A program made the translations under genes and the position numbers. Positions 32,959 to 61,651 of a DNA stretch of 64,000 nt are shown piece after piece. Below the pieces are notes generated by a model. The model did no database searches. It was given only the letters and a program-made list of their open reading frames with translations, and was not told where the DNA came from. Source of the DNA: Pseudomonadota bacterium (GTDB taxonomy: Bacteria; Pseudomonadota; Gammaproteobacteria; Pseudomonadales; Moraxellaceae); NCBI GenBank assembly GCA_040385225.1, contig JAZKHU010000006.1, positions 60,554-124,553 on the forward strand, in the 5' to 3' direction. The number at the start of each line of letters is the position of its first letter. Position 1 is the first letter of the stretch.

Positions 32959-33082
32959 GCGGTGTTGATGGCGCAAGCCGGTCTGGTGCGCGAGCAGGCT
33001 TGAGCCGGCGCGCTCCAGGCCGCACAATCGCTGCCTCACACTCGATTTGTTTCTCAGAAACACGCTTCCGGGATTTCGCATC

Positions 33083-34207
33083 ATGTCTTTGCACCGCACG
33101 CGCCTCCGCCATGCTCGCCGCTGGGTCGTCAAAATCGGCTCGGCCTTGCTTACCGACAATGGTCAGGGTCTGGATCAGGCCGCCATGGCGGCGTGGGTGG
33201 CGCAGATGGTGGCGCTGAAGGCGCGCGGCATCGAGCTGATTCTGGTGTCGTCGGGCGCGGTCGCCGAGGGCATGGTGCGCATGGGCCTGAGTCATCGTCC
33301 TGAATCCGTGCCGGCCTTGCAAGCTTGTGCTGCCATCGGCCAGATGGGCTTGGTGCAGGCATACGAATCACACTTCCGCGAGCATGGCGTGCGTACCGCC
33401 CAGGTGCTGCTCACGCACGATGACCTCGCTGATCGCAAACGCTATCTCAACGCCCGCAGCACGCTGCGCACGCTCATGGACTGGGGCGTGCTCGCCGTCA
33501 TCAACGAAAACGACACCGTCGCCACCGACGAAATTCGCTTTGGCGACAACGACACGCTAGGCGCGCTGGTGGCCAATCTGGTCGAGGCCGAGGCGCTGAT
33601 CATCCTCACCGATCAGGAAGGCATGTTCGACCGCGACCCGCGCAATGACCCCGATGCCGTGCTGCTGCCGGAAGTGCAAGCCATGGACGAGCGTCTGCTG
33701 GCGATGGCTGGTGGCGGCGGCAAGTTCGGTCGCGGTGGCATGGTGACGAAAGTCCGCGCGGCGCGACTGGCGGCGCGCTCGGGCTGTGCCACGGTCATCG
33801 CCAGTGGTCGTGGTGCTGATGTACTGACGCGCATTGCCGATGGCGATGTGCTGGGCACGCTGCTGCTGCCCGAGCAGGACCGGCTGGCAGCGCGCAAGCA
33901 GTGGCTGGCCGGGCATCTGCAGCATGCCGGTCGTCTGCTGCTCGATGCCGGTGCCGTGAAGGCGCTGCAAAGTGGTGGCCGCAGCCTGTTGCCGGTCGGT
34001 GTGCGTGAAGTGCAGGGCACTTTTTCGCGCGGTGAGGTCGTGGCTTGCGTCGATGAGCAGGGCCGGCAAGTCGCTGTGGGCATGGTCAACTACAGCAGCG
34101 AAGAGGCTGGCCGCATTGCGGGTCAGGCCTCCGAGCGCATCGAAAGTCTGCTCGGCTATATCGATGCGCCCGAGCTGATTCATCGCGACAACATGGTTGT
34201 AGTCTAG
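33083..34207 (+). CDS. proB: Glutamate 5-kinase
   Basis: ...[13 protein letters not shown]..., an amino-acid kinase fold and a C-terminal PUA-like segment. Start trimmed to ATG 33083. Confidence 0.93.
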
Positions 34208-34210
34208 TCC

Positions 34211-35122
34211 GTGGTCGGTCAGCGCGGACGCGTCCTGCTGGCGCTGACATCGCTCTATCTGGTCTGGGGCTCGACCTATCTCGCCATGCGCTGGGCCATC
34301 GAAGGCATGGCTCCGCTGTTCATGGCAGGCGTGCGCTATGTCGTTGCCGGTGGCATCATTTACGGATTTCTCGCGCTGCGCGGGCATGCTCGCCCGACCC
34401 CAAGGCAATGGCGCAATGCCGGCTTTGTCGGCACGCTGCTGCTGGTCGGCGGTAACGGTGGTGTCGGGTTGGCGATGGAGGCGGGCGTGAACTCCGCACT
34501 GTCGGCCACGGTGGTGGCGCTGACGCCGCTTTGTGCCGCCCTGTTCTCACGTATTTGGGGTCAGCGCACCACGGCGCGTGAATGGCTGGGCCTGCTGCTC
34601 GGCGTGCTCGGTATTGTCCTGCTCAAGCAGGGCGATGGCCTGGCCGGATCTGTCTTTGGGTTTGCCGTACTGATTTTTGCTGCGCTGATCTGGTCGTTCG
34701 GTTCCATGTGGGGCAAGCATCACGAACAGCCCGATGTCTGGATGGCCAGCGCCGTGCAGATGCTGATTGGCGGCGTGGCCTTGCTCGCGGTGAGCCTGCT
34801 GCGCGGCGAAGCCTGGGGCTTGCCGGCCTCGGCGCAGAGTTTCTGGGCGCTGATCTACCTGATCTTCATCGGTGCCATCGTCGGCTTTTCGTCGTATGTC
34901 TATCTGCTCGCCACCGTGCGGCCGGCGCTGGCGACCAGCTATGCCTATGTCAATCCGGTGGTGGCTGTCGCGCTCGGCGTCTGGCTCGGTGGTGAAACGG
35001 TGGATGCCGCCGAGCTCTGGGGGCTGGCGGTGATTCTGTTCGGCGTGCTGCTGGTGTGCTGGCCGGTGGCCACGCCTCATCAGCCCGATACGCGACGTTC
35101 GGTCGGGCGGGATGCATCATGA
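34211..35122 (+). CDS. EamA/DMT-family transporter (YedA-like)
   Basis: 303 aa with about 10 TM helices. ...LYLVWGSTYLAMRWAIE... is an EamA repeat pattern. GTG start 3 nt after the proB stop. Confidence 0.8.
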   Translation: MVGQRGRVLLALTSLYLVWGSTYLAMRWAIEGMAPLFMAGVRYVVAGGIIYGFLALRGHARPTPRQWRNAGFVGTLLLVGGNGGVGLAMEAGVNSALSATVVALTPLCAALFSRIWGQRTTAREWLGLLLGVLGIVLLKQGDGLAGSVFGFAVLIFAALIWSFGSMWGKHHEQPDVWMASAVQMLIGGVALLAVSLLRGEAWGLPASAQSFWALIYLIFIGAIVGFSSYVYLLATVRPALATSYAYVNPVVAVALGVWLGGETVDAAELWGLAVILFGVLLVCWPVATPHQPDTRRSVGRDAS

Positions 35123-35820
35123 CGACGCGCCAGCTCGTCGTGCTTCTGCTCGCCATACTGCTGGCCGCGATGTGCGGTGGCGGCATCGCTGGCTGGTGGC
35201 TGTTTCAGCATGTCGATGCCCGCGTTCAGCTTAGTCAGCAACCCGCCGTGGTTTCCCTGCCCGAGCCTTTGCGTGTGACTGCCGATGTGCTCAATGTCCT
35301 TGATGTCCGCATTGATGGCGATATTGCCGCGCGCGTGCCCATCGATCAGCTCATCACCGTGCAGCTGAATGACACTCTGCATGTCACCGCCTCGGTCGAT
35401 AGCGAAGTGCCTATCCGCATGACCGTGCCTGTGCGTGAGCAAGTACCCGTCGATCAGATTGTCCATGTCGATACCACCGTGCAGGTTCGCGTGCTTGGCC
35501 GCGACCTGACGTTGCCCGTGCGCGGCGATGTGCCGATCAAGGCCATCATTCCGGTCAGTCTCGACATTCCCGTGGATCAGCGCGTGCGCGTGAAGTTCAG
35601 CACCCCGGCCGATGTCCGCATTGCCCAGCCCCTGCGCGTGCCGCTGAAGGCCGAGATCGCTGCTGTCGTGCCCGTACACAGCCAGCTGCGGGTGCCGGTG
35701 CAGTCGGCACTGCAGGCGACAGTCCAGGTCCATGGTCCGGTGCGCGCCATCATCGAGCAGGCTGATCTGCGCTTGCCGCTGCGCAATCTGGCGCTAGATG
35801 TGAAGCGCGCACAGCCATGA
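35119..35820 (+). CDS. Uncharacterised membrane-anchored protein, paralog A (N-terminal TM helix plus about 200 aa with recurring VPV/VPI/LPV motifs)
   Basis: Start ATG 35119 overlaps the EamA stop (ATGA). TM helix LVVLLLAILLAAMCGGGIAGWWLF. The body shows [VIL]P[VIL] every 8-13 residues and the C-terminus is IIEQADLRLPLRNLAL. No family recognised. Confidence 0.6.
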   Translation: MTTRQLVVLLLAILLAAMCGGGIAGWWLFQHVDARVQLSQQPAVVSLPEPLRVTADVLNVLDVRIDGDIAARVPIDQLITVQLNDTLHVTASVDSEVPIRMTVPVREQVPVDQIVHVDTTVQVRVLGRDLTLPVRGDVPIKAIIPVSLDIPVDQRVRVKFSTPADVRIAQPLRVPLKAEIAAVVPVHSQLRVPVQSALQATVQVHGPVRAIIEQADLRLPLRNLALDVKRAQP

Positions 35821-36521
35821 CGCTGACGCCACGGCAGGTCATCGGCCTGTCGCTCATGGTCGTACTGACCTGCCTGCTCGGCGGCGGTCTCGGTGTATTG
35901 ATCTACCTGCGCTTGGTCGTCGACCTCGATGTCAGCCAGCAGCGCATCTCGCTCAGGCTGCCCGATGGCCTGCGCGCGCAGGCGGATATCAAGGATCCGG
36001 TGCCGGTCAGGATTGATGGCATGGTCAGTGCCAGCGTTCCTATCAACCAGACATTTCAGCTGCCGCTGCGCGGAAGCTATGTCGCGCAAGTGGCTTTCAA
36101 TGCCGACATCCCGCTGAAAACCAGCGTCACCTATAAAGGCAGCATTCCGATCCGGGCCTTTGCTGACTTGCGCGGCAGCACCGCGCTGGTGGTGGACTCG
36201 CGCTTTTTGCCGAAATTCGACCTGATGGCGCGTGTGCCGCTGAACTTCGATTTGCCGGTGACGCTGACGGTACCCATTGATACCCGCATTGCCCTGGCCT
36301 ATCGCGGGCCATTGAGTTTTACGCTGAACCAGAATTTGGCACTGCCGATACGCACCGTGGTGCATGTCCGATTTCCGTTGCATCGCGATGCACAAGCGCC
36401 GGTGCTGGCGCGCATCGGCTTGCAGGTGCATGCACCGACGGCGGCTATCCCGCTGGTGATTGAACAGGCCACGCTGCGCCTGCCGTTGTCGCAGATGTCG
36501 CTGCAGCGCAGTGCACCCTGA
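35817..36521 (+). CDS. Uncharacterised membrane-anchored protein, paralog B
   Basis: ATGA overlap with paralog A and the same architecture. Alignable blocks are DVSQQRISLRLPDGLRAQADI..VPVRIDGMVSASVPINQ against QLSQQPAVVSLPEPLRVTADV..LDVRIDGDIAARVPIDQ, and the C-terminus VIEQATLRLPLSQMSL against IIEQADLRLPLRNLAL. Confidence 0.6.
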   Translation: MTLTPRQVIGLSLMVVLTCLLGGGLGVLIYLRLVVDLDVSQQRISLRLPDGLRAQADIKDPVPVRIDGMVSASVPINQTFQLPLRGSYVAQVAFNADIPLKTSVTYKGSIPIRAFADLRGSTALVVDSRFLPKFDLMARVPLNFDLPVTLTVPIDTRIALAYRGPLSFTLNQNLALPIRTVVHVRFPLHRDAQAPVLARIGLQVHAPTAAIPLVIEQATLRLPLSQMSLQRSAP

Positions 36522-36544
36522 TGCCGTCCGATCATGGCGGAATT

Positions 36545-36558
36545 TGATCCAGATCAAT
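36545..36558 (+). promoter_or_regulatory. Perfect FNR/ANR box TTGAT-CCAG-ATCAA
   Basis: Exact match to the TTGAT-N4-ATCAA consensus. With TGTCAT (36581-36586) as the -10 element, the site is centred at -41.5 (class II geometry). It lies 59 nt upstream of the small ORF ATG. Confidence 0.65.
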
Positions 36559-36616
36559 AAAGCTGATGCGTGATCATGATGTCATGGCCTTATCAATCGT
36601 GATGAGGAGAGATGTC

Positions 36617-36814
36617 ATGTGGATCGAACTGTTGGCTAGCTGGAGCGGCTTCTTGTCGTTTGTCGTGATCCTGCTGTCAGCCGTGGCTATTCCGTTTGGC
36701 GTGATGTGGGCATTGATGCGCAAGGTCAAAGGGCCGATCGAGCTTTCGCACGAGCCTAAAGCATCGGCGCCCGTGCATCATTCCGAATGGCACAACCAGC
36801 GCTACGAGCACTGA
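36617..36814 (+). CDS. Small membrane protein (65 aa) with a His-rich tail
   Basis: GAGGAGA (36604-36610) sits 6 nt before ATG 36617. Sequence is MWIELLASWSGFLSFVVILLSAVAIPFGVMWAL (TM) followed by ...APVHHSEWHNQRYEH. The 3' end overlaps the fnr 3' end by 13 nt. Confidence 0.55.
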   Translation: MWIELLASWSGFLSFVVILLSAVAIPFGVMWALMRKVKGPIELSHEPKASAPVHHSEWHNQRYEH

Positions 36815-37554
36815 CGCTGCAGGTGCTCATTGATTCCGGCCTGATCCAGTAGTGTGATCTGGCGTCCAGCCACTTCAATCATGCCGTCGGCTTGCAGGCG
36901 ATGTAGCGAGCGGCTGACCGTCTCCAGGGCCAGACCAAGATAGTTGGCCAGATCTTCCCGTGTCATGGTCAGGCGCAAGGCATCCGCCGACAGTCGCCGG
37001 CGTGTCTGTCGCGCAGACCAGCTCAGCAGAAAGCTCACCAGCCGTTCTTCGGCACTGGTCTGGCTGAGCATATGCATGCGCTGGTAATCAGCGCGAATTT
37101 CGGTGCTCATGATCTGGAACAGATGGCTTTGCAGCTCAGGCAGTTGCTGCGAGAGCTTGCTCATGGCGTGCACCGGCAGTTCGCAAAGCCCTGCTTTTTC
37201 GGTGGCGATGGCTGTGCTGGCACAGTGCGACTGCGCCAGGTTGTCGAGCCCGATGACTTCGCCCGGCAAATAGAAGCCGGTGACCTGTGTTGTGCCATCG
37301 GCTTGCGTCATGACGGTTTTCAGTGCGCCCGAGCGTACGGCGTAGATGGCGTTTGAGCTGTCGCCCTGGCGATAGATGCTTTCGCCTTTGTTCAAGACTT
37401 TCTGTGCATTGATCAGGTTGCCGAGTTGCTCCAGCGCTGCCGGCTCGAAGCTGGGTGGGAAGCAGATCTTGTGCAGACCGCAGTCGATGCAGCGCGATGT
37501 CGGCAGGGGGCTGGTCATGATGTCTTTCCGCAGAGTGCGATCAATCTCGAGCAT
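36802..37554 (-). CDS. fnr: FNR/ANR-type oxygen-sensing Crp-family regulator
   Basis: N-terminal Cys cluster C-x2-C-x5-C (RCIDCGLHKIC) plus an internal Cys (SHCAS), a cNMP-binding fold (YAVRSGALKT...ITGFYLPGEVIG) and a C-terminal HTH (TREDLANYLGLALETVSRSL). Start is uncertain (ATG 37554 or 37518). The longest ORF start at 37605 would include the rpsT terminator. Confidence 0.85.
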   Translation of the reverse strand: MLEIDRTLRKDIMTSPLPTSRCIDCGLHKICFPPSFEPAALEQLGNLINAQKVLNKGESIYRQGDSSNAIYAVRSGALKTVMTQADGTTQVTGFYLPGEVIGLDNLAQSHCASTAIATEKAGLCELPVHAMSKLSQQLPELQSHLFQIMSTEIRADYQRMHMLSQTSAEERLVSFLLSWSARQTRRRLSADALRLTMTREDLANYLGLALETVSRSLHRLQADGMIEVAGRQITLLDQAGINEHLQRQCS

Positions 37555-37566
37555 AACAGCGCCCAT

Positions 37567-37597
37567 AAAAAAACCGGCCCCAAGGGACCGGTTTTTT
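37567..37597 (-). terminator. Rho-independent terminator of rpsT
   Basis: Plus strand reads aaaaaaa-ccggcccc-aa-gggaccgg-tttttt. On the minus strand the hairpin is followed by a 7-T run. Confidence 0.65.
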
Positions 37598-37638
37598 CTA
37601 TCCACAAGCCGTGCCGTCAGGCACAGCGAGCGCAGAGC

Positions 37639-37902
37639 TTAGGCGAGGGCCTTGACCTGTGCGTTCAAGCGGCTCTTGTGACGAGCTGCCTTGTTCTTGT
37701 GGATGATGCCCTTGTCGGCAATACGATCAATGATCGGCACGGCAACCGTGTAGGCGGCTTGCGCTACAGCCTTGTCGCCGGAGGCGATGGCGTTTACGAC
37801 TTTCTTGATGTAGGTACGCACCATGGAGCGCAGGCTCGCATTGTGCAGGCGCTGCTTGTCGTTTTGACGAGCGCGCTTCTTGGCTTGTGCAGAGTTGGCC
37901 AC
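37639..37902 (-). CDS. rpsT: 30S ribosomal protein S20
   Basis: [35 protein letters not shown]... is the canonical S20 N-terminus. Confidence 0.97.
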
Positions 37903-38067
37903 AGGGCGACTCCTAAATAAATCGGTGAATAAAGTGTCTCAAATATGCGGGTTTGCATATCTAAAATCAGGCGCGTAATGATGCCGATGCAATCGCCCTA
38001 AGTCAACTACTTAGGTGGCGATACTGGGGCGGCTGGGCTAACATCACGCCGCGCATCAGGAGTCATC

Positions 38068-39627
38068 ATGTCCAGCCCACCTTTGCAGTCTACCAATAAC
38101 CGCTTATGGCGTTCGACTTTCATTGTCAGTGCCATGACCTTGTTGTCGCGTATTGCCGGGCTGGTGCGCGATATGGTGTTCATGAACCTGTTCGGCGCCG
38201 GCAAGCTCATGGACGCCTTTCTGGTGGCGTTCAAGATCCCCAATTTTCTGCGTCGCCTGTTTGCCGAGGGCGCGTTCTCGCAGGCCTTTGTGCCGGTCCT
38301 GACCGATGTCCGTGCGCAGCGCGGCGAAGCTGCCGTGCGCCAGCTGATTGATCATGTCGCCGGCTCGCTGACGCTGATCATTGGCAGCATCAGCGCGATC
38401 GCGATTGTCTTTGCGCCGGCCATCATCTTCATTTTTGCGCCGGGGTTCCGTGAGGATGCGCTGCGCTTTGATCTCGCCGCCGATATGCTGCGCATCACCT
38501 TTCCTTATCTATTGCTGATTTCGCTGACGGCGTTTGCCGGCGGCATTCTCAATACCTATGGCCGTTTCGGCGCATCCAGCTTCACGCCGGTGCTGATGAA
38601 CCTGAGCATGATCGGCTGTGCGATCTGGCTGGCTCCGTTGCTGACCACGCCGATCATGGCGCTGGCCTGGGGTGTACTCATCTCCGGCATCGTCCAGCTC
38701 GGCTTTCAGTGGCTGCCCTTGCGCCAGATCAATCTGGTGCCGCGCTTCAAGCCCGATTTCAAAGATCCCGATGTGAAGCGCATTCTGACGCTGATGGTGC
38801 CGGCCATGTTCGGGGTGTCGGTGAGCCAGATCAATTTGCTGCTGGATACCATTCTGGCGTCGTTTCTGGTCGCGGGCTCGGTGTCCTGGCTGTATACCGC
38901 CGAGCGTCTGACCGAGCTGCCGCTGGGGCTGATCGGCATCGCGGTGGCGACGGTGATTTTGCCGACGCTGTCGGCCAAACATGCGGAAAAGTCGGATGCC
39001 GAATTTCGCGGCACCATCGATTGGGCGCTGAAAGTGATTTTTGTGGTCGGTGTGCCGGCGTCACTGGCGATGGGCATCCTGGCGGAGCCCTTGATGGCGT
39101 CGCTGTTCCATCACGGCCAGTTTGACCGCGTTGATGTGGTGAAGTCGGCGATGGCCTTGCAGGCACTGTCCGGCGGCATTCTTGCCTTCATGCTGATCAA
39201 GGTTTTCGCGCCGGCGTTTTATGCCCGGCAGGATGTGAAGACGCCGGTTCGCATCGGCATCATCGCCATGGTGGCAAATATGGTCTTTAACCTGATGCTG
39301 GTCTGGCATCTGGAGCATGTCGGCCTGTCGCTGGCCAGCACCTTGTCGGCTTTCCTCAATGCCGGCCTGCTTTATAAAGGGCTACATCAGAAAGGCATCT
39401 ATCGTTTTGAGCGGCACTGGGTGGCGCTGGCGCTGCGTTTTGCGCTGGCCAATGCGGCGATGGTGGCGGTACTGCTGGCCATCACGCCGGACAGCAGCTG
39501 GTGGTTGGATGGCCAGGGATGGTCGCGTGTGGGCTGGGTACTGCTGATTTGTGCTGCCGGTGCGGCGAGTTATGGCGTGGCGTTGCTGGCAGTAGGCTTC
39601 CGGCCACGTGAGCTGCGCCATCACTGA
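38068..39627 (+). CDS. murJ: Lipid II flippase MurJ (MviN)
   Basis: 519 aa polytopic protein. ...SAMTLLSRIAGLVRDMVFMNLFGAG...DAFLVAFKIPNFLRRLFAEGAFSQAFVP... are MurJ signatures. AGGAG RBS. Confidence 0.93.
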   Translation: MSSPPLQSTNNRLWRSTFIVSAMTLLSRIAGLVRDMVFMNLFGAGKLMDAFLVAFKIPNFLRRLFAEGAFSQAFVPVLTDVRAQRGEAAVRQLIDHVAGSLTLIIGSISAIAIVFAPAIIFIFAPGFREDALRFDLAADMLRITFPYLLLISLTAFAGGILNTYGRFGASSFTPVLMNLSMIGCAIWLAPLLTTPIMALAWGVLISGIVQLGFQWLPLRQINLVPRFKPDFKDPDVKRILTLMVPAMFGVSVSQINLLLDTILASFLVAGSVSWLYTAERLTELPLGLIGIAVATVILPTLSAKHAEKSDAEFRGTIDWALKVIFVVGVPASLAMGILAEPLMASLFHHGQFDRVDVVKSAMALQALSGGILAFMLIKVFAPAFYARQDVKTPVRIGIIAMVANMVFNLMLVWHLEHVGLSLASTLSAFLNAGLLYKGLHQKGIYRFERHWVALALRFALANAAMVAVLLAITPDSSWWLDGQGWSRVGWVLLICAAGAASYGVALLAVGFRPRELRHH

Positions 39628-59926: not shown

Positions 59927-61651
59927 TTGGAACAGTTATCTGGCGGTGAAATGCTCATTCGCGCGCTCGCGGATGAAGGCGTTGAATTCTTATTTGGTTA
60001 TCCCGGCGGCGCCGTGCTGCATATTTACGACGCCATCTTTCAGCAAGACAAGGTCAAGCACATCCTCGTTCGTCACGAGCAGGCCGCCGGCCATGCTGCC
60101 GACGGCTACGCGCGTGCCACCGGCAAGGTCGGCTGCGTACTCGTGACCTCTGGCCCCGGTGCCACCAACACGGTGACCCCGATCGCTACGGCCTACATGG
60201 ACAATATCCCTATGGTCGTCATCTCCGGTCAGGTGCCGTCGCACCTCGTCGGTGAAGATGCCTTCCAGGAAACCGACATGATCGGCGTCAGCCGCCCGAT
60301 CGTGAAACACAGCTTCCAGATTCGCCACGCCTCGGAAATCCCAGGCGTGGTGAAAAAGGCGTTCTACATCGCCTCGTCCGGTCGTCCGGGTCCTGTCGTC
60401 ATCGACATCCCCAAGGATTGCACCAACCCGAACGAGAAGTTCGACTACGACTACCCGACCAAGGTCAAGCTGCGCTCCTACACGCCGCCGGGCCGTGGTC
60501 ATGCCGGTCAGATCAAGAAGGCCGTGGATGAGCTGCTCGCCGCCAAACGTCCGGTGATCTACGCCGGTGGCGGTGTGGTTCAGGGCAACGCCTCGCATCT
60601 GCTCACCGAGATGGTGCGCACGCTGGGCTATCCTTGCACCAACACCCTGATGGGCCTCGGCGCCTATCCCGGCAGCGACCCGCAGTTCATCGGCATGCTC
60701 GGTATGCACGGCACCTACGAAGCCAACATGGCCATGCATCACAGCGATGTCATCTTGGCTGTGGGCGCGCGTTTCGATGACCGTGTTACCAACAACACTG
60801 CCAAGTTCTGCCCGAACGCCAAAATCATTCACATTGACATCGACCCCGCCGCGATCTCCAAGACCGTACGCGTCGATATCCCCATTGTTGGTGCTGTTGA
60901 ACCGGTACTGACCGACATGCTGGCGCAGATCAAGGCCGAAACCGAGATCAAGCCGGATGCCGAAGCGCTGAAAGTCTGGTGGGAACAGATCAATCAGTGG
61001 CGCGCTCGTCACGGCCTGCGTTACGAACCGGCTCAGCCCGGCGAAATGAAGCCGCAGCAAGTCGTGGAGATGCTCTACAAGGTCACCGAAGGCAAGGCCT
61101 ATGTGACCTCCGATGTCGGCCAGCACCAGATGTTCGCGGCCCTGTACTACAAGTACGACCGTCCGCGTCAGTGGATCAACTCAGGTGGCCTCGGCACCAT
61201 GGGCTTCGGCCTGCCGGCAGCCATGGGCGTCAAGTTCGCCTTCCCGGATGCGATCGTGGCCTGCGTCACCGGCGAAGCGTCGATCCAGATGAACATTCAG
61301 GAGCTGTCGACCTGTCTGCAATACGGCTTGCCGGTGAAGATCATCAACATCAACAACCGCTCGCTGGGCATGGTCAAGCAATGGCAAGACATGCAGTACG
61401 AAGGTCGCCACTCGAACTCCTACATGGATTCGCTGCCCGATTTCGTCAAGCTGGTTGAAGCCTATGGCCATGTCGGCATGAAAATCACCGACCCGGCCCA
61501 GCTCGAAAGCAAAATGCGCGAAGCCTTCGCCATGACTGATCGCCTGGTCTTTCTCGACATCTATGTCGATCCTTCCGAGCATGTTTACCCGATGCACATC
61601 GCCAAGGGTTCCATGCGTGACATGTTGCTGAGCAAGACGGAGCGTACCTGA
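59927..61651 (+). CDS. ilvI: Acetolactate synthase III, large subunit
   Basis: 574 aa. (TTG)[28 protein letters not shown]... aligns from residue 1 with E. coli IlvI (MEMLSGAEM...), so the TTG start at 59927 is plausible. ThDP motif [13 protein letters not shown]. Confidence 0.95.

Follow-up and report, generated by a model that had tools for sequence, protein, structure and literature searches.

In the 64-kb stretch of Moraxellaceae DNA analyzed here (positions 60,554 to 124,553 of contig JAZKHU010000006.1, assembly GCA_040385225.1; hereafter the window, to whose positions the coordinates below refer unless another record is named), two adjacent genes, which we call A and B, encode an anciently duplicated, translationally coupled pair of membrane-anchored proteins. 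Each is predicted to consist of an N-terminal helix and one giant β-hairpin with ~90 residues per arm, and the hydrophobic residues of both arms fall on one face. Our tentative picture is that A and B would pack together through these faces into a rod that stands on the inner membrane and crosses the envelope; what such a rod would carry we hold still more tentatively.

A and B align end to end with 30% identity (E = 2e-26), and the alignment includes both blocks that led an earlier note on this DNA to regard them as paralogs, SQQ..LP..LR..AD..VRIDG..VPI[DN]Q and [IV]IEQA[DT]LRLPL. The same note took the duplication to be old and retained as a pair, and this has held up well. Identity clustering of 73 sequences yields exactly 38 A-type and 35 B-type proteins, with mean identities of 50% within A, 41% within B, and 24% between the two, and the duplication is therefore older than all of the sampled lineages; A always precedes B, and the overlap of the two genes persists down to ~35% identity. 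Comparison with four related loci gives ratios of nonsynonymous to synonymous substitution (dN/dS) of 0.06-0.10 for A and 0.08-0.16 for B, with 0.03-0.06 for proB and murJ; A and B are thus real protein-coding genes under purifying selection, evolving faster than their housekeeping neighbors. That they are spurious, decaying, or nonfunctional open reading frame (ORF) remnants could be argued from the lack of a family, of any annotation beyond ‘hypothetical’, and of expression data, but the dN/dS values of 0.06-0.16, conservation in two bacterial orders, a family of 507 representative clusters, and presence on at least 1,000 Acinetobacter baumannii contigs already refute this explanation, to which we give essentially no weight.

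The pairing is strictly conserved. The ~38 loci that we analyzed come from the Moraxellaceae, A. baumannii among them, and the Nevskiales. In each, a B-type gene comes immediately after an A-type gene, and in most of them the A stop and B start codons share a 4-nucleotide (nt) overlap, either ATGA or GTGA, including one locus whose A protein is only 35% identical to that of the window. A genome scan assigns the window to an uncultured lineage of Moraxellaceae close to Perlucidibaca aquatica, which has an A protein 79% identical to window A; its other matches are in Aquirhabdus and in the Nevskiales genera Solimonas, Nevskia, Panacagrimonas, Stenotrophobium, Sinimarinibacterium, and Oceanococcus. 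Three loci, in Panacagrimonas and Oceanococcus, contain an A, A′, B triplet (L032 7989-10395, L034 7962-10347, and L037 7319-9719; loci are cited by our own numbers), in which the A-type gene has therefore been duplicated again.

The A. baumannii pair was found by tblastn in a plasmid collection (PLSDB) that includes some mislabeled chromosomes; relative to the window proteins, identity is 36% for the A-like member (E = 9e-57) and 26% for the B-like member (E = 2e-25). The pair sits between gap and obg-proB and stands alone, preceded by what we judged by eye to be a terminator-like hairpin with a T-run, and it is present across the Acinetobacter calcoaceticus/baumannii complex. The B ortholog falls in a 651-member cluster and is found as an exact sequence on at least 1,000 contigs, named ‘hypothetical protein’ or, wrongly in a few records, ‘MFS transporter’; CP040041.1 labels the pair in the latter way, which looks like a mis-annotation. 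We note that records NZ_CP064203.1, NZ_CP077849.1, and NZ_CP104448.1 carry the PLSDB plasmid label yet are 3.7-4.1 Mb long, and that in NZ_CP064203.1 the pair (492714-494140, corresponding to L044 8917-10343) is surrounded by chromosomal uvrB, gap, obg, and proB. Among the locus tags around gap (A1S_2501) in strain ATCC 17978, the literature searched mentions only A1S_2499, a ‘hypothetical protein’ gene induced 2.6-fold by ethanol (PMC2848557), which may or may not be one of the pair.

AlphaFold2 (AF2) models of A and B, built from 42 and 51 sequences, respectively, each show an N-terminal helix (residues 3-31 in A and 5-32 in B), in keeping with the single membrane helix that had been proposed for both, followed by one long hairpin. 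The mean predicted local distance difference test scores (pLDDT) are 63.7 for A and 70.8 for B, with predicted template-modeling scores (pTM) of 0.29 and 0.28. All of the strand pairs in A obey i+j=253, and in B, strands 62-122 and 134-194 together with short strands all pair at i+j ~256. In an independent mean-field direct coupling analysis (DCA) of 227 family sequences (effective number 156), the strongest long-range pairs concentrate on i+j=253±2: 8 of the first 25, 14 of the first 50, and 21 of the first 100 fall there, where 0.69, 1.4, and 2.8 are expected (antidiagonal z-score 5.9); these pairs span 44-209 to 118-135 and include the charge-complementary R100-D153 and D76-K177. The first DCA runs were dominated by gap artefacts, and a second antidiagonal at i+j ~116-118 vanished with more sequences and was dropped.

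The spacing of proline motifs follows the same geometry. The earlier note had [VIL]P[VIL] recurring every 8-13 residues, which does not describe the family: in 207 family proteins the spacings are almost all even with a mode of 6 (644 instances), followed by 8 (241), 12 (161), 10 (136), 16 (133), and 24 (126), and odd spacings are nearly absent (two instances of spacing 5, four of spacing 7, and two of spacing 9). Because AF2, covariation, and even motif spacing agree, we predict a single hairpin for each protein. The all-β extracytoplasmic domain suggested previously is thus supported by AF2 and the family topology, but not its solenoid-like form, as AF2 and covariation both give one long hairpin.

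Hydropathy alternates along both arms. Across the family, mean Kyte-Doolittle values in arm 1 are +2.3 at odd and −1.9 at even positions, and in arm 2 they are +2.6 at even and −2.0 at odd positions. The ascending arm of window A has hydrophobic residues at 33/47 odd positions, with no Pro, and at 9/46 even positions, with seven Pro; over both arms, one face is hydrophobic at 33/47 and 35/47 positions and the opposite face carries 17 Pro. In window B the corresponding values are 32/45 and 37/45, with 16 Pro on the opposite face. Since i+j is odd and hydropathy alternates with parity, the hydrophobic residues of the two arms lie on one face of the ribbon and the Pro and charged residues on the other; highly conserved Pro (up to 98%) occur on both arms and always on the same face. 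Conservation is spread along the whole A ribbon, with a mild peak at residues 131-160, which fits an interaction surface better than an active site.

The β domain should be periplasmic and the N terminus cytoplasmic, as judged from the flanking charges, which follow the positive-inside rule (family-wide, a net charge of +1.8 before the helix and +0.4 after it), and from N-terminal extensions. A single strongly hydrophobic N-terminal segment is present in 97% of the family, and in the anchor of A, G21 is invariant and G20 is conserved in at least 90% of members. In thirteen members the membrane segment starts 49-178 residues into the protein, after an N-terminal extension. In the representatives P0083, P0094, P0119, P0187, and P0190 (325-412 amino acids [aa]), the membrane helix starts 96-178 residues in, and there is no Pfam match; P0083 and P0094 are B-type by score, and by eye their extensions are rich in Pro, Ala, and charged residues. 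Such an extension may form a cytoplasmic interaction or regulatory tail.

We propose that A and B are bitopic inner-membrane proteins that translational coupling would deliver in equal amounts, each oriented N-in, with a ~200-residue periplasmic ribbon of two antiparallel strands that presents one uninterrupted Val/Ile/Leu face and, on the other side, charged residues and a Pro every six or another even number of residues. The two proteins would be joined through their hydrophobic faces into a rod of 1:1 composition, which might have an open groove; mutual burial is favored because ~90 exposed Val, Ile, and Leu side chains would be unstable alone in water and because the pairing is strictly 1:1 and coupled. 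Such a rod would be anchored in the inner membrane and extend in the direction of the outer membrane. The periplasm is ~20-25 nm wide, and the contour length of an arm, ~90 residues at 3.3 Å each or roughly 300 Å, is similar, so that the tip could reach the outer membrane.

Two other arrangements of the same ribbons deserve consideration. In the first, many A and B hairpins would assemble into a closed β-barrel tube, with the continuous hydrophobic face lining a lumen that conducts lipids or alkanes across the periplasm. The Foldseek searches called for by the earlier note bring this to mind, as the best matches in the Protein Data Bank (PDB) for both models are the long-hairpin barrel stems of pore toxins and phage tail tubes; however, these matches are weak (E = 2e-3 or worse, TM scores 0.10-0.19) and reflect shape only. 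The conserved Pro on the same face of both arms also look to us like a ladder that shields free strand edges, which suits an isolated ribbon better than a barrel whose strands are all hydrogen bonded; we therefore prefer an isolated pair of ribbons and think a tube quite unlikely. In the second arrangement, the ribbons would not span the periplasm but rest on a membrane leaflet or a hydrophobic substrate, with the hydrophobic face turned toward it, and form an amphipathic β belt or interfacial coat. Acinetobacter and Nevskiales are associated with hydrocarbon and lipid metabolism, two related loci lie beside AlkB or acyl-CoA dehydrogenase genes, and an unbroken hydrophobic stripe of ~300 Å could serve such a coat well. 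The face, however, is rich in Val, Ile, and Leu with few aromatics, more like a protein core than an interface, and strict 1:1 pairing of paralogs is more simply explained by mutual burial of the two faces; we therefore consider this arrangement unlikely too.

The gene context in relatives bears on what an A:B rod might do. In every Nevskiales locus with upstream sequence, the pair lies 2-20 nt downstream of a DUF1302 gene of ~730 aa, within a cluster of AraC (divergent), DUF4282, DUF1302, A, B, Abi_alpha (PF14337), DUF445, and LolA_like (PF17131) genes (L004/L017, L012-L016, and L019-L033; for example, L004 2066-10399). Panacagrimonas shows a permuted order, DUF4282, Abi_alpha, DUF445, DUF1302, A, B. 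A separate lineage with 35% identity (L039) has two acyl-CoA dehydrogenase genes, ADC, DUF1302, A, and B; one Nevskiales-type locus is near an AlkB-rubredoxin gene, and Aquirhabdus retains AraC, A, B, and DUF445. The conserved Nevskiales cluster is apparently undescribed; it is a DUF1302-system variant that lacks the DUF1329, RND, and BNR partners usually present.

The DUF1302 (PF06980)/DUF1329 system is known from Pseudomonas and Shewanella. DUF1302 is an 18-strand outer-membrane barrel resembling AlgE and the Occ channels and is predicted to bind a LolA-like DUF1329 protein (PMC13499233), mutant fitness phenotypes have been seen on Tween 20 and butyl stearate (bioRxiv 10.1101/2020.07.04.188060), and cofitness links the genes to an RND pump and a BNR protein (bioRxiv 10.1101/072470). 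The likeness to the loci described here is that A and B directly follow the barrel gene in Nevskiales and L039, and that the Nevskiales clusters additionally hold a LolA-like protein and an AraC regulator; in the published system, too, a barrel goes with a LolA-like protein, and there is a link to hydrophobic esters (PMC13499233; bioRxiv 10.1101/2020.07.04.188060). Unlike the Nevskiales clusters, the published system has an RND (COG1033) pump and BNR partners (bioRxiv 10.1101/072470) and no A/B-type proteins.

Because the Nevskiales context combines DUF1302, a LolA-like protein, and lipid-catabolic genes, we favor a role with hydrophobic molecules, and trans-envelope handling of such molecules would probably be the function of an A:B rod. 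In Nevskiales and the other lineage, the pair would be the inner-membrane-anchored, periplasm-crossing part of a DUF1302/LolA-like/DUF445 system for hydrophobic molecules, and in the Moraxellaceae, including the window, it would have become a stand-alone envelope component. That the two hairpins form a hydrophobic-lined rail or groove of ~25-30 nm, ferrying lipids or other hydrophobic molecules from the inner membrane to an outer-membrane partner (DUF1302 in Nevskiales), is a doubtful extension of this proposal.

Several observations weigh against the trans-envelope rod. No DUF1302, DUF445, LolA-like, Abi_alpha, or DUF4282 homolog was found in the whole 64 kb of the window, and DUF1302 was not found in the three chromosome-sized A. 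baumannii records, so that a DUF1302 gene adjoins the pair in L039 and the Nevskiales loci with upstream sequence but not in the window or A. baumannii. Those three records do contain a DUF445 gene (49% identity) elsewhere in the genome, with no other cluster members in its neighborhood. The AF2 models are of moderate confidence (mean pLDDT 64 and 71, pTM 0.28-0.29), covariation can not distinguish contacts within a chain from those between chains, and we infer contact between A and B solely from their pairing and the exposed hydrophobic face. More distant relatives, such as P0057, P0058, and P0150, occur as single copies; the surroundings of P0057 and P0058 are uninformative, and a metagenome scan with P0150 returned one locus with a single, unpaired copy.

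The earlier note could place neither protein in a family, and searches agree. A and B have no above-threshold match in Pfam or NCBIfam, nothing above noise in PADLOC or PHROGs, and no match among PDB sequences, whether searched with single sequences or a family profile. Weak candidates were rejected: HrpB_C for A in Pfam (E = 0.063, below the cut-off; the same scan, run at E<=1, gave nothing for B), the NCBIfam equivalog FliL (16.9 bits where 131 are required, and confined to the membrane-helix region, residues 3-60), PADLOC REase_II (E = 0.054), a PHROG of unknown function (E = 0.51), LEA_2/WHy (LEA14, PDB 1xo8; phmmer E = 1.2 with A alone, lost with the family profile, and no PF03168 match), and the A2A receptor, which was matched with the family profile only at E above 2. 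In Pfam at E<=1, neither protein matches the hidden Markov models of the LptC, OstA, AsmA, TamB, or MlaD-MCE families, nor do they match the PilN/PilO models PF05137 and PF04350, and Pfam found no fused domain in ten longer family members.

Homologs in other genomes are nonetheless numerous. Word-indexed searches of 5.8 billion proteins found 29 relatives of A and 25 of B; those of A that have a name are called hypothetical protein, and no source names those of B. When 1.84 billion representatives were searched exhaustively with a profile, 507 clusters passed E<=1e-3, 245 passed 1e-10, and 91 passed 1e-30. By their scores with separate A and B profiles, the 149 top representatives and the two A. 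baumannii proteins sort into 78 A-type, 52 B-type, and 21 ambiguous members. Ten representative clusters that we looked up gave no taxa and only the name ‘hypothetical protein’, and literature on DUF1302, on periplasm-spanning hairpins, and on DUF445 with Acinetobacter yielded no description of the family. In the libraries and literature searched, the A/B family is without curated annotation, solved relative, or describing paper.

Several known systems resemble the pair in part. The Lpt (LptC/LptA), AsmA-like/TamB, and MCE (LetB, PqiB) bridges share with it an inner-membrane anchor, an elongated β-rich periplasmic part, and a continuous hydrophobic surface, and possibly a role in moving hydrophobic molecules between membranes. 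Folds of the Lpt, AsmA, and MCE types are built from many short strands across the long axis, whereas A and B have two ~90-residue strands along it and no family match in Pfam; a single antidiagonal, i+j=253, runs through the whole domain in both AF2 and covariation, which is not the pattern of a lipid-bridge jellyroll or taco fold. PilN/PilO and GspL/GspM are likewise adjacent, coupled, bitopic paralogs of ~200-230 aa with one N-terminal membrane helix, and A and B, too, would be expected to form a heterodimer encoded up- or downstream of an outer-membrane component. Their fold is an α/β ferredoxin-like domain with a coiled coil, unlike that of A and B, which also lack a PilN/PilO match in Pfam.

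The top Foldseek matches, the stems of β-pore toxins (aerolysin, lysenin, and anthrax protective antigen) and phage tail tubes, have very long β-hairpins, but these are shorter than those of A and B and lie within larger soluble proteins that have no membrane anchor and no paralog pairing. The matches are nonsignificant (E above 1e-3), and there is no significant structural match to aerolysin- or lysenin-type proteins beyond the hairpin, and none in Pfam. The G5-E repeats of SasG/Aap and the single-layer sheets of OspA have strands along the long axis and form thin, rigid rods that project from the cell surface; SasG/Aap are Gram-positive wall-anchored proteins, OspA is spirochaetal, and none is known to have an extended hydrophobic face. 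Their likeness to A and B is that of a thin rod with lengthwise strands, and no sequence or fold match was obtained.

In the window, A is preceded by a gene of the EamA family (PF00892, E = 4e-34, 118 bits against a cut-off of 28.2, in two stretches) that belongs to the YedA-like EamA/drug/metabolite transporter (DMT) group (NF008432, 327 bits against a cut-off of 270). The earlier note speculated that A and B are accessory partners of this exporter, and the ATGA coupling of EamA to A gives some reason to think so; the overlap is kept in L007-L010 at synonymous divergence (dS) up to ~1.5 for A and ~0.8 for EamA, although it is absent elsewhere. However, the order EamA-A-B occurs only in the Perlucidibaca clade (L001 and L006-L010), and in L002 and L005 the EamA ortholog (75-78% identity) precedes a bestrophin gene while the pair lies ~2 kb away, beyond fnr and before rpsT. 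In ~25 Nevskiales loci the pair has no adjoining EamA gene and, where upstream sequence is available, follows DUF1302. An EamA gene near the A. baumannii pair has no significant similarity to that of the window, is non-orthologous, and is parted from the pair by gap and the terminator-like hairpin and T-run. As the pair, and not its adjacency to EamA, is the conserved unit, an accessory or regulatory role of A and B with the upstream exporter is unsupported and very improbable.

The gene order of the region is rplU, rpmA, obg, proB, EamA, A, B, a 65-aa membrane ORF, fnr and rpsT (both on the minus strand), murJ, ribF, and ileS. Both ATGA overlaps lie exactly where the earlier note had read them (Table 1), and the products are, in line with its figure of ~233 aa, 233 aa (A) and 234 aa (B) long. 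The proB stop and the annotated EamA start (34207-34211) are separated by only 3 nt, and a scan listed no terminator-like site between proB and EamA or in the intergenic stretch downstream of B; from this gap and the lack of a listed site, obg, proB, EamA, A, and B may form one transcription unit.

Table 1. Features of the EamA-A-B locus, in window coordinates
Feature	Coordinates	Strand	Basis
EamA/DMT transporter gene (YedA-like), 303 aa	34211..35122	+	ORF; PF00892, NF008432
ATGA overlap of EamA stop and gene A start	35119..35122	+	sequence read directly; junction gcatcATGAcg
Gene A, 233 aa, A-type member of the pair	35119..35820	+	ORF; dN/dS; homologs; A cluster
Predicted membrane anchor of A, residues 3-31	35125..35211	+	AF2 helix, pLDDT 87-97
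Predicted ascending arm of A hairpin, residues 33-125	35215..35493	+	AF2 strands 33-45, 62-81, 86-125; parity counts
Predicted descending arm of A hairpin, residues 128-220	35500..35778	+	AF2 strands 128-167, 172-191, 208-220; covariation
ATGA overlap of A stop and B start	35817..35820	+	sequence read directly; junction cagccATGAcg
Gene B, 234 aa, B-type member of the pair	35817..36521	+	ORF; dN/dS; homologs; B cluster
Predicted membrane anchor of B, residues 5-32	35829..35912	+	AF2 helix 5-32
Predicted giant hairpin of B, arms 34-122 and 134-223, tip loop 123-133	35916..36485	+	AF2; parity counts

A single perfect FNR box occurs in the 64 kb, TTGATccagATCAA at 36544-36557, downstream of B, 22 nt after its stop and ~60 nt upstream of the 65-aa single-helix membrane ORF (36617-36814), whose 3′ end overlaps that of the convergent fnr gene (36802-37605, minus strand) by 13 nt. 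A box with one mismatch is in the same place before the orthologous small ORF in L002 (4916) and L009 (9425), and in L002 and L005 there is no FNR box between fnr and A. We rejected FNR control of the A/B pair, as the box is downstream of B and tracks the small ORF in L002 and L009. The ORF has no Pfam or NCBIfam match and appears to encode a small membrane protein that FNR activates and that is linked to fnr. Synonymous divergence between the window (33047-39627) and the closest metagenome-assembled genome (L001) is uneven, at 0.33 for proB, 0.39 for EamA, 0.16 for A, 0.05 for B, 0.02 for the small ORF, and 0.46 for murJ; this unevenness suggests a recent recombination tract over B and the small ORF.

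The passage of hydrophobic molecules through the aqueous periplasm is a central open question of Gram-negative envelope biology, for which only a handful of solutions are known: the Lpt bridge, MCE tunnels, AsmA-like grooves, and LolA-type carriers. For A and B, which are kept as a two-gene pair, three independent lines of evidence predict a rod that is hydrophobic over one whole face and whose length roughly matches the breadth of the periplasm. The family also offers candidate partners for the uncharacterized DUF1302 outer-membrane barrels. If a hydrophobic rail proved to be the correct reading, it would be a new architecture beside the Lpt, MCE, and AsmA-like bridges, encoded in the priority pathogen A. 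baumannii, and occurrence in the A. calcoaceticus/baumannii complex makes genetics, fractionation, and cryo-electron tomography feasible. Whether or not the idea of transport is right, a ribbon with ~90-residue arms and a ladder of Pro would be an unusual protein architecture.

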